Of a stretch of DNA of 64,000 bases, positions 29,291-39,175 are shown in pieces; position 1 is the first letter of the stretch, and each line of letters starts with the position of its first letter. The DNA is from an uncultured Acidobacteriota bacterium (GTDB lineage: Bacteria > Acidobacteriota > JAQAZP01): the NCBI GenBank assembly GCA_963836075.1, contig CAWIIB010000009.1:3330442-3394441 (forward strand), in the 5' to 3' direction. The position numbers and the translations under genes are program-made. The notes beneath the pieces are model-generated. The model saw only the letters and a list, made by a program, of their open reading frames with translations, was not told the DNA's origin and ran no database searches.

Positions 29291-29932
29291 ATGATCTGCG
29301 CAGATTCCATGCATTTGCTCCTGGAGACAGCAGGCTCGGGAAGCCTGTCGGTTCCACGGCCAGGTGCTTCCACAAGAGGCCCGGAGGATCCCGCCAGACC
29401 CCTGTGGCTCGAAATCCCTCCTGGCGTGAGCTATCTGACTATGGAGAAGGACGGATACCCCCGTTTGGACCAGGATCCACCGGAAGGAGCCAGCGGCTTC
29501 GTGCTGCTCGAACCGATCAGCTGGGACCAGGGCGACCGAGTGCTTGCAATCAATATGCGGCCAAAATCGCTGCGCGTCAACGGGAAAATTGCACCCCCCG
29601 TGATTTTACTGAAAGCGGGTGACGAGCTGCTCTTCAGCCCGGCCAGCGGATATGTGGCGCACGTGGCGGTGTTCAACAGCGGGGCCGTTGGCACTCTGTC
29701 GGATGAGGAGACGGAAGTGAGGTGCGCGATCTGTTTGAACACGTTCGAGATGGGGGCCCGGGTCTATGTGTGCCCTGGTTGTAAAAAGCCATTTCACCTC
29801 GATTCAGAAGATCAGCCGGAGGAGACCCGGCTGGTCTGTGCCCGTCCGGGCAACAGGTGTCCCATCTGCCGGACGCCGATGAATTTTGAGGCTGGCTACA
29901 CCGAGGTCCCGGAGTGCTTCCGGGGGCACTGA
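29291..29932 (+). CDS. RING-like (binuclear Cys/His) zinc-finger protein with a possible FHA-like N-terminal region; candidate E3
   Basis: RBS GGGAGG lies 9 nt upstream. The C-terminus reads C-x2-C-x12-C-x2-C-x4-H-x13-C-x6-C-x2-C (CAICLNTF...CPGCKKPFH...CARPGNRCPIC). The N-terminal ...LRVNGKIAPPVILLKAGDELLF resembles the end of an FHA domain. Confidence 0.6.
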   Translation: MICADSMHLLLETAGSGSLSVPRPGASTRGPEDPARPLWLEIPPGVSYLTMEKDGYPRLDQDPPEGASGFVLLEPISWDQGDRVLAINMRPKSLRVNGKIAPPVILLKAGDELLFSPASGYVAHVAVFNSGAVGTLSDEETEVRCAICLNTFEMGARVYVCPGCKKPFHLDSEDQPEETRLVCARPGNRCPICRTPMNFEAGYTEVPECFRGH

Positions 29933-29943
29933 TCAGCTGAAGC

Positions 29944-31191
29944 ATGGGGGAGAGGACAGTGGCGGATCTCTACTTCGAGATTGAGCATGGCGGGAATCAT
30001 GATTCCACAATTCGCGCGCCCCGGGAGTCCCGCCTGCCGGATTTCATTGGTGCGCCGGATGGCGCCGGGAAGAAGCTCGGTGGGCTGCGGGTGGTCATTG
30101 CCGGATGTGGCAGCGTGGGGCAGGCCGTTGCCATTCACTGCGCCCGGTTGCAGGTGCGTGAAATCAGTCTGGTGGACAGCAAGCCGCTGAAGTCCTCGAG
30201 CATGCTGACCCACGGCTGGGCTTTCCCCGAGGACCTCGGGCAGCCCAAAGCAACGGTTATCGGACGCCTGGTGAAGCAGATCTCCCCGGGCACCCGGGTC
30301 CGGGTGTATGACGGCCGGGTCGGTGAACTGGGTCTCCGTGCATTCGCATCCGCCGACCTGGCCGTGCTCTGCACCGACAACCTGCTGGCCGAAGTGGAGG
30401 TGGGCCGCTGTTGCCGGTTGCTGGGTGTCCCGGTTTTTCAGGGTTCTCTACATGGGGCCAGCATGACTGTGCAGGTTCGGGCCTGGAGCAATACGGCGGA
30501 CGGGCCGTGCCCGGCCTGCAGCTATACCTCGGCCGAATTCGAAGCGCTGAACAGCGAGACCGAATTCAGCTGCGAGGGGGGATTCGGGGGCCGGGGAGCG
30601 CCGCGGATCAGCGGTCCGGTGACGGCCAGCACCTCCTTTCTCTGTGCGCTCAGTGCGGATATGACCATGGTGCAGCTGGTTCGCCACTGGTTGGGACTGG
30701 GCCTGCCGGTTCTCGATTCGATCCTGGAATGGAACGGCTTCACCCACCGCAGTACCGTCAACCCGCTGCAGCGGAAAGCCGGCTGCGGGGGAGAGCACAC
30801 GGTGTGCCGCCGTGTGCCGTCAAACCACGCCATCGGTGAATCATCAATCCGTCAACTGCTCATCGCCGGCGGGGCTGCAACAAAAAAGAACCACGCCGGC
30901 ATGTCCCTTCAGCTGGACGACCTTCTGTTCTGTGAGCGGGCATCGTGCGGTTGTCCGCCGTCACAGCAGTCCGGGAGGTTTTACAGCTGCGGTGCGGGAG
31001 GGGGCCGGGCTGGCGAGGTCTGCAGCACCTGCGGGCAGAAGCCCGTGCCGAGCCCTTTTCATTGTTACGAGATGGTTCCCCTGGCTGAGCTGAAGGCGTG
31101 CATGGATCAGCCGCTTTCAGAGCTGGGGGCGGGAAACGCCGGCTGGGCCAGGCTCCGTGATCCGGAAGGGAGTGTGTTGATCGGTATCTGA
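29944..31191 (+). CDS. ThiF/UBA-type E1-like adenylating enzyme with a Cys-rich C-terminal extension
   Basis: Rossmann motif LRVVIAGCGSVGQAVAIHCARLQVREISLVD, a CPAC pair in the crossover region, and a C-terminal FCERASCGC...CSTCG cluster. Confidence 0.7.
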   Translation: MGERTVADLYFEIEHGGNHDSTIRAPRESRLPDFIGAPDGAGKKLGGLRVVIAGCGSVGQAVAIHCARLQVREISLVDSKPLKSSSMLTHGWAFPEDLGQPKATVIGRLVKQISPGTRVRVYDGRVGELGLRAFASADLAVLCTDNLLAEVEVGRCCRLLGVPVFQGSLHGASMTVQVRAWSNTADGPCPACSYTSAEFEALNSETEFSCEGGFGGRGAPRISGPVTASTSFLCALSADMTMVQLVRHWLGLGLPVLDSILEWNGFTHRSTVNPLQRKAGCGGEHTVCRRVPSNHAIGESSIRQLLIAGGAATKKNHAGMSLQLDDLLFCERASCGCPPSQQSGRFYSCGAGGGRAGEVCSTCGQKPVPSPFHCYEMVPLAELKACMDQPLSELGAGNAGWARLRDPEGSVLIGI

Positions 31192-37453: not shown

Positions 37454-38348
37454 GGACAGACTGCTCACGCCGATCTACCTGCGGACGAGCGAGGAGATGC
37501 ACTGGCCGGAGGACACGGTGTTTTACATGCTCACCGGCAGCGGTCTCTTTCTCTGCCGCAACAACGAGCACTTCCGCAGCTGTGTTCCGGCCCGCGGCTG
37601 GCCCGGGGAACTGCCCGGTCAGGAAAAGTTCCTCGATCTGCACTATCCCCGGCTGCCCCGGCGGCTGCTGGAACGGGCGGTGGGCTTTTTCGAAGCGGTG
37701 GGGCGCAAACACGATGCGGAAGCGGCACTGCTCCTGGCCTGGGACAGCGAGCGCGAGGTTTACCGCCTGGTGATTCCCCGGCAGCGTTGTACCGTGTACC
37801 TCAACTGGCAGGGGGACACCTCGCCCCAGGGCGTGCACTACGACCTTCCGGAACGCGTGCCCGAGACCTGGATCATTGTTGGCGACATCCACAGCCACGT
37901 CGATTTTTCGGCATACTCCTCGGCCACCGACCAGCACGACGAGCACTACCGCACTGGTCTGCACATCGTGGTGGGCCGCATCTACGACGAGCCGCCCCAG
38001 TTTCATGTGGAAGCCACGGTGGACGGTATGCGCTTTCCCGTCCAGCCGGAGGATATTTTCGAGGGCTACGATTCCCGGAGAAGCGATTTCCCCGAGCAGT
38101 GGTTCGACTGGCTGAAGATCGAACTCGGTTCCGCTTTCACATACTCGGACAGCAGCAAATGGAGTTCCGGCACTGGTTCCTCCGGCTGCAGCGGCCATGG
38201 CCACACGGCCTGTTCACCGATGCCGGCCCCCCGGGGCGGTACCACCGGTTATTCGGTCGCTCCGCTGGAAACGTATCGCAGTTCGGGAAACGGCGGGAAA
38301 AAGAAGGGCGGTGGCCGCAACCGTGACGGCCGGGGGAAACGTCGATGA
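37440..38348 (+). CDS. JAB/MPN (JAMM) metalloprotease with a Gly/Lys/Arg-rich tail
   Basis: EAALLLAW... and an exact JAMM spacing, H-S-H-VDFSAYS-S-AT-D. Overlaps the upstream gene by 14 nt and the downstream gene by ATGA. Confidence 0.8.
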   Translation: MNCSEDRLLTPIYLRTSEEMHWPEDTVFYMLTGSGLFLCRNNEHFRSCVPARGWPGELPGQEKFLDLHYPRLPRRLLERAVGFFEAVGRKHDAEAALLLAWDSEREVYRLVIPRQRCTVYLNWQGDTSPQGVHYDLPERVPETWIIVGDIHSHVDFSAYSSATDQHDEHYRTGLHIVVGRIYDEPPQFHVEATVDGMRFPVQPEDIFEGYDSRRSDFPEQWFDWLKIELGSAFTYSDSSKWSSGTGSSGCSGHGHTACSPMPAPRGGTTGYSVAPLETYRSSGNGGKKKGGGRNRDGRGKRR

Positions 38349-39175
38349 GCGGGGTCGGGAGGGAACAGGTGGTTCTGATGCCCGCTCTGGCCGACCACAC
38401 GGCGGTCAAAATCATCGGTCTGGGCGGAGTGGGCGGCATCGTGGCCCGCTACCTGTCCATCTTCCTCGCCTCGCTGGACCGCGACCTGCGGCTGGTGCTC
38501 ATCGACGGCGACGAGTTCGAGCCGTCCAATGCCACACGGATGCTGTTCTCCGATCACGGCAACAAGGCCGCGGTCACTCGCGCCGAACTCCGGGAACGCT
38601 TTGCCGACACGTCCCTCATGCTGACTGCCGTGGAGCAGTATGTGAAGCCGGACAACATTCACCGCCTGATTCAGAATGATGACGTGGTCATCCTGGCCGT
38701 GGACAACCACGCCACGCGAAAGCTGGTCAGCGAGCACTGCCGGAGCCAGTTGAACGACGTGTGCCTGATCTCGGGGGGGAATGACGGCGTGGGCCCCGAC
38801 GGGTCGGGTTCCCGGCGGCGGGGCACATACGGCAACTGCCAGATTTATTTGCGCCGGGGCGGCCGGGATCTATGTCCCCCGATCACCCGGTATCATCCCG
38901 AGATCCGGGAACCGGCGGATCACAGCCCCGCCGAGGAGAACTGCACCGAACTGATCAAGTCGGTGCCGCAGATCCTGTTCGCTAACCTGGCCGCGGCATC
39001 GGCCATCCTCAACGCCTTCTGGCTCCATTGCTGCTCCGCGCTGCACTACAGCGAACTCAGCTTCGACATTGCCGATGGTCTGATGCGGCCCATGCCCCTG
39101 CCGGCCCCTCTCGTCATCGCGAGGAGCCCGAAGGGTGAAGCGGCGCTCTCTTCGGATGTCTTTCCGGTTCAATGA
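38345..39175 (+). CDS. ThiF-family E1-like protein (PRTRC/Bil-type)
   Basis: VKIIGLGGVGGIVARYL...LVLIDGDEFEPSNATRMLF...VILAVDNHATRKL. Confidence 0.8.
   Translation: MSGVGREQVVLMPALADHTAVKIIGLGGVGGIVARYLSIFLASLDRDLRLVLIDGDEFEPSNATRMLFSDHGNKAAVTRAELRERFADTSLMLTAVEQYVKPDNIHRLIQNDDVVILAVDNHATRKLVSEHCRSQLNDVCLISGGNDGVGPDGSGSRRRGTYGNCQIYLRRGGRDLCPPITRYHPEIREPADHSPAEENCTELIKSVPQILFANLAAASAILNAFWLHCCSALHYSELSFDIADGLMRPMPLPAPLVIARSPKGEAALSSDVFPVQ

Follow-up and report, generated by a model that had tools for sequence, protein, structure and literature searches.

A 64,000 nucleotide stretch of DNA from an uncultured Acidobacteriota bacterium (assembly GCA_963836075.1, contig CAWIIB010000009.1, positions 3,330,442 to 3,394,441 of the forward strand; the whole stretch is called the window here) contains a run of eleven genes between positions 29291 and 39175. 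A preliminary description of the window had proposed that they join two ubiquitin-like conjugation cassettes with a proteasomal-type AAA+ unfoldase, and we followed up this proposal computationally. All eleven open reading frames (ORFs) lie on the plus strand and have exactly the coordinates and overlaps first listed. The motifs cited for them are present in the sequence: eight zinc ligands in the first gene, FHPNI...QVLCLG in the third, a THLG-stop end in the fifth, GEKGG followed by a tail in the eighth and HxHx7Sx2D in the tenth. The genes are numbered g1 to g11. Activating, conjugating and ligase enzymes of the ubiquitin type are termed E1, E2 and E3, and a ubiquitin-like protein is termed Ubl. 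Genes g1 to g6 are referred to as module A or cassette 1 and g7 to g11 as module B, in which g8 to g11 form cassette 2.

29291..29932, plus strand: g1, candidate E3, 213 aa, N-terminal beta-rich domain and C-terminal C4HC3 zinc finger (RING/PHD-like)
29944..31191, plus strand: g2, E1-1, 415 aa, ThiF adenylation domain and C-terminal domain of about 110 aa
31268..31945, plus strand: g3, ubiquitin-conjugating (UBC)-type E2-1 (weaker assignment), 225 aa
31950..32765, plus strand: g4, predicted CesT/YbjN chaperone-like fold (structure model), 271 aa
32779..33081, plus strand: g5, candidate Ubl-1, likely start ATG 32788, about 97 aa from there
33172..34362, plus strand: g6, JAMM-like C-terminal half, N-terminal half without assignment, likely start ATG 33187, about 391 aa from there
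34340..36127, plus strand: g7, AAA+ ATPase with N-terminal helical region, oligonucleotide/oligosaccharide-binding (OB) region and one AAA module, likely start ATG 34367, 586 aa from there (equals protein P0001)
36105..36509, plus strand: g8, Ubl-2, predicted beta-grasp protein with disordered N-terminal tail, likely start ATG 36174, 111 aa from there
36503..37453, plus strand: g9, divergent E2-like candidate, 316 aa, family without annotation
37440..38348, plus strand: g10, JAB/JAMM metallopeptidase-2, 302 aa
38345..39175, plus strand: g11, minimal E1-2, 276 aa, single ThiF adenylation domain

The genes g8 and g9 overlap in the sequence ATGTTGA (36503/36509), g9 and g10 share 14 nucleotides and g10 and g11 overlap in ATGA; the remaining intergenic gaps in the operon are at most 90 nucleotides long. 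The mechanically called starts of g5, g6, g7 and g8 are probably located too far 5′. The likely starts given above are based on independent gene calls of an identical contig (L004) and on family alignments, and they turn the apparent overlaps of g6 with g7 and of g7 with g8 into gaps of 4 and 46 nucleotides, respectively.

The ATPase encoded by g7 had been described as proteasomal-type, and this was borne out by the profile comparisons. The TIGR03689 model (pup_AAA) aligns over the full length of the protein (residues 62-559, 8.4e-25, 87.4 bits with a cut-off of 504.75), and Pfam matches were found for AAA (4.8e-14) and Prot_ATP_ID_OB_C (6e-4). In the PDB, the family profile finds Mpa (8e-40) and ARC (1e-38) as its best matches, which extend over the OB region; for VAT, Cdc48 and p97 the match is confined to the AAA module (1e-30 to 1e-26). 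From its sequence, g7 is firmly assigned as a classical AAA+ protein of the Mpa/ARC type, a relative but not an orthologue of Mpa. Conserved motifs are Walker A (GSGKS), W(L/F)G in the pore loop and the RR arginine pair. The Walker B motif reads hhhhEE and not hhhhDE (E370-E371, window positions 35447-35452, aligned to FFDEMD of Mpa), which is invariant in 31 sequences. The C-termini of 24 family members are variable and contain neither an HbYX or GQYL motif nor a conserved penultimate tyrosine.

The tag of cassette 2, Ubl-2 (g8), was modelled within a natural fusion of Ubl-2 and g9 that occurs in a ten-gene version of the operon (P0115, predicted local distance difference test (pLDDT) 83.5). 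The model of this homologue shows a beta-grasp fold, as first proposed for g8, and its top structural matches include the ThiS/MoaD-like protein MTH1743 and MoaD; a profile comparison (hhalign) of g8 with MoaD was not significant. About 30 residues at the N-terminus form a tail that is conserved yet disordered. The C-terminal AGEKG could be compared in 62 loci: nine proteins end there, 44 continue into variable tails and nine are fused in frame to g9. The tails following GEKG are 0 to approximately 150 aa long, and the one in the window has 12 aa. Based on the model, g8 is firmly predicted to be a ubiquitin-like beta-grasp protein with a C-terminal glycine that can be exposed.

The protein encoded by g9 had been put forward as E2-like. 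It belongs to a family of 459 clusters at 50% identity, and no Pfam match was found in any family member or in ten distant relatives, nor a PDB match with the family profile. Comparisons of g9 with UBE2D2 and with g3 (hhalign) were not significant. The features that stand are an invariant cysteine (PLSWICTQ) and a predicted topology of a beta-meander, a loop with the cysteine and helices; g9 might thus be E2-like, and we retain it as a weaker candidate. Most of its database relatives are 370-430 aa long, which is the size expected for fusions of Ubl-2 with g9.

Both remaining enzymes of cassette 2 are recognized by Pfam, in agreement with the preliminary description. The g10 protein matches Prok-JAB with 5.9e-8 (33 bits, above the cut-off of 25), and its residues E94, H151-x-H153, S161 and D164 are invariant, which gives the HxHx7Sx2D motif (window sequence HSHVDFSAYSSATD). 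Its best NCBIfam match is TIGR03735 (PRTRC_A; 4e-12, 46 bits), below the cut-off of 101.8. The assignment of g10 as a Prok-JAB peptidase can be regarded as firm at the level of sequence. The g11 protein matches ThiF with 6e-16 and contains conserved GLGGVGG, DGD.FE.SN..R and DNH.TRK motifs as well as a cysteine in NCTEL; no other operon protein is as well conserved (41-67% identity).

The second E1 is encoded in module A by g2 (ThiF, 5.4e-24), and g2 and g11 are both firmly predicted to be ThiF-type E1 enzymes. Conserved in g2 are GxGxxG and the zinc motif CPAC. C210 (FSC) is invariant and lies where the catalytic cysteine is expected in the E1 crossover loop; the C-terminal domain has the invariant cysteines C335, C360 and C363. 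The g2 family profile matches MoeB (3.5e-21) and the active adenylation domains of UBA7, UBA1 and UBA6 (approximately 1e-20).

The other members of module A are more divergent. The g3 protein had been called a UBC E2. C147 is invariant in Q.LCLG and follows a mostly conserved (W/F)HPN(V/I), and in a comparison of the g3 family with a profile of four human E2 proteins (hhalign, 79 columns) HPN and the cysteine are in register; the E-value is 5e-4, the probability only 31%. No Pfam UQ_con or Prok-E2 match was found in 18 family members and no PDB sequence was matched by the family profile. We consider g3 a probable UBC-type E2, an assignment weaker than those of the E1 proteins. In the g1 protein, which had been described as RING-like, the eight ligands (C145, C148, C161, C164, H169, C183, C190 and C193) are invariant across 16 orthologues. 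The match to Prok-RING_1 is below the Pfam cut-off (1.4e-5, 25.4 bits; cut-off 29.1), and the family profile weakly matches a PHD finger (KMT2D, 0.0075) and a RING finger (RNF24, 0.014) in the PDB; the C4HC3 pattern is compatible with PHD and RING alike. At the N-terminus of g1, an RVNG..AP...L..GD motif and a match to the KIF13B entry 3fm8 (E=1.7), which we take to be a forkhead-associated (FHA) domain, hint at an FHA-like domain; we regard this as a lead only.

The gene g4, for which no function had been proposed, yielded a model with a pLDDT of 81.6 and a predicted template modelling score (pTM) of 0.82 from a shallow alignment of seven sequences. The predicted CesT/YbjN chaperone-like fold is newly assigned here with high confidence; judging from its secondary structure, g4 probably consists of two of these modules in tandem. 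CesT/YbjN-type chaperones hold extended polypeptide segments, and by analogy g4 might act as an adaptor. A joined database query with g9 and g4 returned only g9 relatives among the matches listed.

The presumed tag of module A, g5, had been proposed as a Ubl because of its THLG end. The C-terminal consensus is P[KR]xH[LM]G; of 85 loci, 52 encode a protein that stops directly at H[LM][GA] and the other 33 one with a tail of 1-14 aa. The conserved terminal glycine thus stands, while no similarity was detectable to ubiquitin, MoaD or Ubl-2 (hhalign) or to any PDB chain (family profile). From size, terminus and context, g5 could have a beta-grasp fold. For g6, which had been listed as JAB-like, the motif residues E222, H293-G-H295, S324 and D327 are invariant, and a 28-residue insert between HxH and SxxD contains the invariant C310 and C316 and a nearly invariant C307. 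No Pfam or PDB match was found for g6, and the comparison with the g10 family (hhalign) places HGH opposite HSH without reaching significance (E 0.29). The motif suggests a JAB-like protein, a weaker assignment without statistical support.

Altogether, g3, g4, g5, g6, g8 and g9 had no match in scans of Pfam, NCBIfam and PADLOC. Apart from the JAB proteins, no peptidase was detected among the operon proteins in Pfam scans, as the preliminary description had stated. Our confidence is high for g2, g7, g8, g10, g11 and the fold of g4, and moderate to low for the other five proteins. Both tags have a conserved glycine at or near the C-terminus that is followed by variable tails or fusions, and in this respect they look like processed modifiers. 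The nucleotide-binding motifs and the conserved loop cysteine of both E1 proteins, the beta-grasp model of Ubl-2, the glycines of the tags, the JAMM motifs and the invariant cysteines of the E2 candidates together make conjugation chemistry plausible.

We examined approximately 100 loci, 23 from species-representative genomes and 80 metagenome contigs, the latter seeded on g6. The identical order of eleven genes was found in 32 complete loci including the window, with 24-67% identity to the window proteins (tblastn), and every informative partial locus has the same order and strand. The AAA+ protein has relatives in at least 74 database clusters (36-56% identity). The same eleven genes with the same sizes are present in a Deltaproteobacteria metagenome-assembled genome (MAG) and in a second MAG, which one database source labels as Verrucomicrobia-like; the labels of the 23 genome loci comprise Verrucomicrobiota, Planctomycetota (Pirellulales, Gemmataceae), Deltaproteobacteria/Thermodesulfobacteriota (Desulfobacterota-like), Eiseniibacteriota and unclassified MAGs. 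The neighbours of the operon vary from genome to genome. Since the gene order is conserved while the neighbours differ, the operon appears to be one selected unit that moves between lineages. The possibility that two unrelated operons lie side by side by chance is ruled out by the conservation across loci.

A few loci deviate from the standard arrangement. In L017 a 5.4-kb insertion (2110-7468) separates g3 and g4 and the remainder of the operon is intact. In the Verrucomicrobia MAG locus L010 g6 is missing (4065-4350, 285 nucleotides from Ubl-1 to the ATPase) and the other ten genes are kept; g6 might be dispensable, or the copy in L010 might be in decay. In two Planctomycetota loci, a further gene in the same orientation lies between those of the ATPase and Ubl-2 (L026, 11707-12954, plus strand; L022, approximately 11731-13024). 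The L026 gene encodes 415 aa and by eye resembles a degenerate Clp/AAA-type nucleotide-binding domain (VLWGSAGCGRDELLLAAA). In the Deltaproteobacteria MAG (CP070692.1, L001) a gene of the phage integrase family (15101-15778, minus strand) is located approximately 370 bp 3′ of the operon, which fits acquisition as an island.

The two modules differ in their independence. Genes g7 to g11 occur without any trace of g1 to g6 in a Gemmataceae MAG (L025) and in the contigs L030, L113/L114 and L115. In these contigs, a four-gene module (ATPase, Ubl-E2-like fusion, JAB and E1) is surrounded by dozens of small ORFs in the same direction. Phage-type genes are present in L030 and L113 as well, namely an exonuclease (phrog_298, 7e-24), a helicase (phrog_16, 1e-81), phrog_1366 (1.5e-37) and a member of the Pfam Mgm101p family, which is presumably Rad52-like. 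The module proteins of the phage-like contigs are 38-63% identical to those of the window, as close as the proteins of other eleven-gene operons. Cassette 1, on the other hand, always led into g7 and cassette 2 in the 80 loci seeded on g6, wherever at least approximately 350 bp of downstream sequence were available. Because g7 to g11 occur alone and cassette 1 only together with them, the system consists of a core of ATPase, Ubl-2, E2-like protein, JAB and E1, which is free-standing on mobile DNA, and a more eukaryote-like add-on of six genes that is found only with this core and only in cellular genomes. The preliminary description had seen three ideas merged in the operon, a Bil-type cassette, a Caldiarchaeum-like operon and a Pup-Mpa-like pair of tag and unfoldase. 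Their parts do co-occur, but the ATPase belongs with cassette 2, and the two occur as a unit of their own in L025, L030 and L113-L115. The elements represented by L030, L113/L114 and L115 may belong to an unsampled phage group or to another type of mobile element. A 45-kb viral contig (L031, IMGVR_UViG_3300015259_000002) encodes Ubl, E2-like protein, JAB and the start of an E1 at 9573-11984, which belong to the same families (34-51% identity), and has no ATPase directly upstream of the Ubl.

We compared the operon with known systems. With the Pup-proteasome system of Actinobacteria it shares the architecture of Mpa/ARC (helical N-terminus, OB region and a single AAA module in g7) and the logic of a tag combined with a ring-shaped unfoldase. 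In contrast to Mpa, g7 scores 87 bits with TIGR03689 (cut-off 505), lacks a GQYL/HbYX tail and has EE in Walker B, and the predicted tags are beta-grasp proteins activated by E1 enzymes. Pup itself is disordered and is ligated by PafA. No match to pup, pafA/dop or prcAB was found among the eleven operon proteins, and the flanking genes examined are unrelated to them. In PRTRC systems (ParB-related, ThiF-related cassette), which are located on mobile DNA, a JAB and a ThiF protein likewise occur together with a small beta-grasp protein. PRTRC_A of these conjugative elements is the best NCBIfam match of g10, but its 46 bits are below the cut-off of 101.8, and neither ParB nor PRTRC proteins B-F were found in the NCBIfam scan. 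The PADLOC models for the E1-E2 proteins of the type II cyclic oligonucleotide-based antiphage signalling system (CBASS; Cap2/Cap3) match only the adenylation part of g2, and the operon has no CD-NTase and no effector.

Cassette 1 resembles the operon of Caldiarchaeum subterraneum and tri-ligase operons in its E1, its UBC-like E2 with HPN and cysteine, its RING-like finger, its tag ending in glycine and its JAMM-like peptidase. If cassette 1 was noticed earlier, this was most probably in the work of Burroughs et al. 2011 on bacterial 'tri-ligase' systems. Ubl-1 differs from the tags of these operons in that it ends with HLG and has no detectable similarity to ubiquitin, and the finger stays below the Prok-RING_1 cut-off. 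Further differences are the extra CesT/YbjN-like gene, the constant linkage of the cassette to a second cascade and an Mpa-like ATPase, and the lack of PafA/Dop, FtsH, vWA-MoxR and caspase-like effectors in the operon. Kaur et al. 2020 also describe tri-ligase systems and Ubl-E2 fusions, and one sentence mentions a Ubl system coupled to a Pup system in Planctomycetes and Thermofonsia, which is read there as a link to degradation (PMC7159879). This sentence may or may not refer to the present operon, which has no Pup ligase, and the supplement of that paper has no entry for a 'Pup-coupled' system.

Cassette 2 had been likened to Bil-type cassettes, and the gene order of g8 to g11 (Ubl-E2-JAB-E1) does agree with that of BilABCD. 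In Bil systems the Ubl has a conserved glycine and a variable tail that is removed by the JAB peptidase (PMC10557695), and the same pattern of a glycine followed by a tail is seen here. BilD, however, contains tandem inactive and active adenylation domains (PMC11601596), whereas g11 has a single one, and Bil has no ATPase, E3 or second cascade. The operon proteins had no sequence or fold match to BilB, and no Bil, Bub or CBASS homology was detected for them. In type I Bub operons (6E.1) the Ubl is encoded as a fusion to the E2 and is freed by the JAB peptidase (PMC11601596). Fusions of Ubl and E2-like protein are likewise present in homologues of the operon but not in the window. Bub differs by its JAB-E1 fusion, its serine protease BubE (DUF6527) and its Ser/Tyr oxyesters, whereas in the present operons JAB and E1 are never encoded as one gene and the cysteine of g9 is invariant. 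No Pfam family whatever, DUF6527 included, matched g3 to g6, g8 or g9, and the Bub proteins of the PDB library were absent among the fold matches. Membership in Bil or Bub was rejected because the defining features of these systems were not found.

The preliminary description knew of no system with this composition. In PADLOC, NCBIfam and the searched literature, with Burroughs et al. 2011 outside the comparison, we likewise found neither a dual cascade with an Mpa-like ATPase nor the phage-like four-gene module described. As far as checked, the system appears to be undescribed, a variant among prokaryotic ubiquitination-like operons that is set apart by its obligatory unfoldase, its two cascades and its unannotated families.

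From the gene content, order, conservation, folds and motifs described above we infer how the biochemical steps proceed, in which direction the modules are connected and what biological role they have, as follows. Pro-Ubl-2 would be made with a tail or fused to the E2-like protein, and JAB-2 would trim it, which exposes the glycine. E1-2 would then adenylate this glycine and the E2-like protein g9 would pass Ubl-2 on to targets. The Mpa/ARC-like hexamer might engage proteins marked with Ubl-2 and unfold or extract them, in parallel to Mpa and pupylated proteins, and might grip Ubl-2 via its disordered tail as Mpa does with Pup. Since no protease is encoded and a docking tail is lacking, the end point could be the inactivation or disassembly of the target or its hand-over to an unlinked protease. 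Module A would be a more eukaryote-like cascade of three enzymes, with g2 as an E1 that has an additional C-terminal domain, g3 as UBC-type E2 and g1 as RING/PHD-like E3, which act with their own tag, a JAB-like peptidase and g4 as chaperone or adaptor; most likely, it adds E3-directed target selection or licensing to module B.

The patchy distribution over phyla, the variable neighbours, the integrase gene and the phage-like copies of module B suggest that the system is likely to act in conflicts between hosts and mobile elements, either in defence or in counter-defence. The preliminary description had suggested tagging and unfolding in defence, and such a function could be part of this role. 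Taken as a whole, the reading of the operon as a conserved, horizontally mobile two-module system, with a Ubl-2 tag-and-unfold core and a cascade as add-on, that acts in host-mobile element conflict is a tentative one, to which we give slightly less than an even chance.

Several points weigh against it. The functions of all components are predicted from sequence and modelled structure, and the recognition of either Ubl by the AAA+ protein is a supposition. The modules might act in either order, and they might act on each other. The EE in place of DE in Walker B is a property of the whole family and could mean altered or slower ATP hydrolysis. The window is not part of a defence island and PADLOC recognizes no system in it. 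The phage-like contigs show no structural genes within 10 kb, and IMG/VR pattern scans seeded on the phage-type Ubl-E2-like fusions (P0149, alignment A13) gave no relatives; an earlier IMG/VR scan had given a single, weaker viral relative without ATPase, the contig L031 mentioned above.

Three other explanations were weighed. The E1, beta-grasp and JAB genes might serve sulfur transfer or small-molecule biosynthesis, as ThiS/ThiF, MoaD/MoeB and CysO/Mec+ do, without any protein conjugation. Both E1 proteins indeed score as well against MoeB/ThiF as against ubiquitin E1 enzymes, and MTH1743 and MoaD are among the structural matches of Ubl-2. The operon, however, includes no sulfurtransferase, rhodanese, MoaE, ThiG or other biosynthetic gene, and E2-like cysteine proteins, a RING/PHD-like finger, an unfoldase and a chaperone-like protein would be out of place in such a pathway. 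The sulfur carriers ThiS and MoaD end in GG, whereas Ubl-2 ends in EKG and is often fused to the E2-like protein, and we consider this explanation very improbable. Alternatively, the AAA+ protein could be a regulator or assembly factor that remodels E1 or E2, frees a Ubl-E2 precursor or resets the system, comparable to TRIP13/Pch2 acting on the HORMA proteins of CBASS. In every module, phage-like ones included, the Ubl/E2-like gene comes immediately after that of the ATPase, the frequent fusion of Ubl-2 to the E2-like protein makes a remodelling step conceivable, and PADLOC gives a weak match of g7 to TRIP13 (1e-4). This match is confined to the generic AAA core, though, no HORMA-like partner was found in the operon in Pfam and PADLOC scans, and by far the closest relatives of g7, OB region included, are the substrate unfoldases Mpa and ARC; a regulatory ATPase is in our view unlikely.

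Finally, the operon could serve housekeeping or stress-related quality control unrelated to phages, as a beta-grasp analogue of pupylation in which tagged proteins, once unfolded, reach an unlinked protease, for example the 20S proteasome, ClpP, Lon or tricorn. The Mpa/ARC-like architecture is in line with this, and in the window the operon lies amid housekeeping genes with a tricorn-like protease 6 kb away. The coupling of Ubl and Pup in Planctomycetes, in the one sentence of Kaur et al. 2020, was read as a link to degradation as well (PMC7159879). What speaks against quality control is that the C-termini of the ATPase are variable and lack a docking motif, that no conserved protease gene was found in or beside the operon in the genome contexts examined, and that the distribution is patchy, with differing neighbours, an integrase gene next to one copy and module B in phage-like contigs. 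We therefore regard it as improbable that the operon has such a housekeeping function, and prefer its interpretation as a two-module system in host-mobile element conflict.

A further-reaching interpretation, which we hold to be rather doubtful, sees module B as a hitherto unrecognized ubiquitin-like tag-and-unfold machine of bacteria and phages, in which Ubl-2 would serve as a covalently bound handle and its conserved, disordered N-terminal tail would be threaded by the Mpa-like ring. The second, eukaryote-like E1-E2-RING cascade of the cellular version, with its own tag and a chaperone-like adaptor, would then establish a two-tag hierarchy, in the sense that one modification licenses or directs the other, and the principle of Pup-Mpa or ubiquitin-Cdc48/proteasome would be realized with a beta-grasp tag and E1/E2 chemistry outside archaea and eukaryotes.

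CBASS Cap2/Cap3, Bil and Bub have only recently been shown to conjugate proteins, and in the published accounts consulted here they come without an unfoldase. If the present system works as proposed, it becomes directly testable whether the linkage of beta-grasp tags with proteasomal-type AAA+ rings arose, or also exists, outside the archaeal-eukaryotic lineage, and what use such a linkage has without an attached protease. The system is a compact genetic unit of ten or eleven genes with a smaller four-gene version in phage-like contigs, and it contains at least five protein families without a Pfam model (g3, g4, g5, g6 and g9). It also offers a natural case of two ubiquitin-like cascades wired in one operon, and the phage-borne copies raise the possibility that viruses use tagging and unfolding against host proteins.

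Two features are located directly upstream of the operon:

27343..28611, minus strand: divergent gene, candidate regulator of the operon, 422 aa, with a weak N-terminal helix-turn-helix (HTH) match (HTH_26/HTH_3, below the Pfam cut-offs)
28612..29290: putative intergenic control region, 679 bp, AT-richer (41% GC; flanks approximately 64%)

The best promoter-like site on the plus strand of the control region is located at 28945-28972 (10 of 12 matches). Directly 5′ of it, an inverted repeat at 28894-28915/28919-28940 has arms of 22 nucleotides with 77% complementarity and a spacer of 3 nucleotides; this repeat (28894-28940) could be an operator for the divergent HTH gene. Ten terminator-like sites were counted within the operon, which is no excess over the shuffled expectation of 8.1 +/- 2.6. 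The preliminary description had treated the eleven genes as one transcription unit; the promoter-like sites before g1 and the terminator counts are compatible with this, although they are no proof. An Rfam scan of the window gave no match.

A 40% identical orthologue of the divergent gene occupies the same divergent position in L001/L005 (L005, 3310-4497). With tblastn, upstream matches on the opposite strand were found in eight metagenome loci and a ninth match (L042) on the plus strand, and distant relatives are located upstream in L013, L016 and L028. This gene might be part of the system. Nearly every complete locus has a divergent gene of 250-540 aa just 5′ of g1, and these genes belong to at least two unrelated families. 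The second family, with proteins of approximately 400 aa, was found in L007, L012, L014, L024 and L029, and the L029 member has a weak match to a SorC-type sugar-binding domain. Pfam matched none of the divergent upstream genes from ten loci.

In the window, the operon is flanked by housekeeping genes. The tricorn-like protease (44959-48448, minus strand) is located 6 kb downstream of the operon and is apparently split over two overlapping ORFs, one with PD40/DPPIV_N and the other with Tricorn_C1, PDZ_Tricorn and Peptidase_S41. It is absent from the other four genome contexts listed, and its proximity to the operon is probably a coincidence. On the other side, a histidine kinase and an NtrC-type sigma-54 response regulator are encoded at 22951-25943 on the minus strand, 1.4-5.7 kb upstream of the divergent gene.

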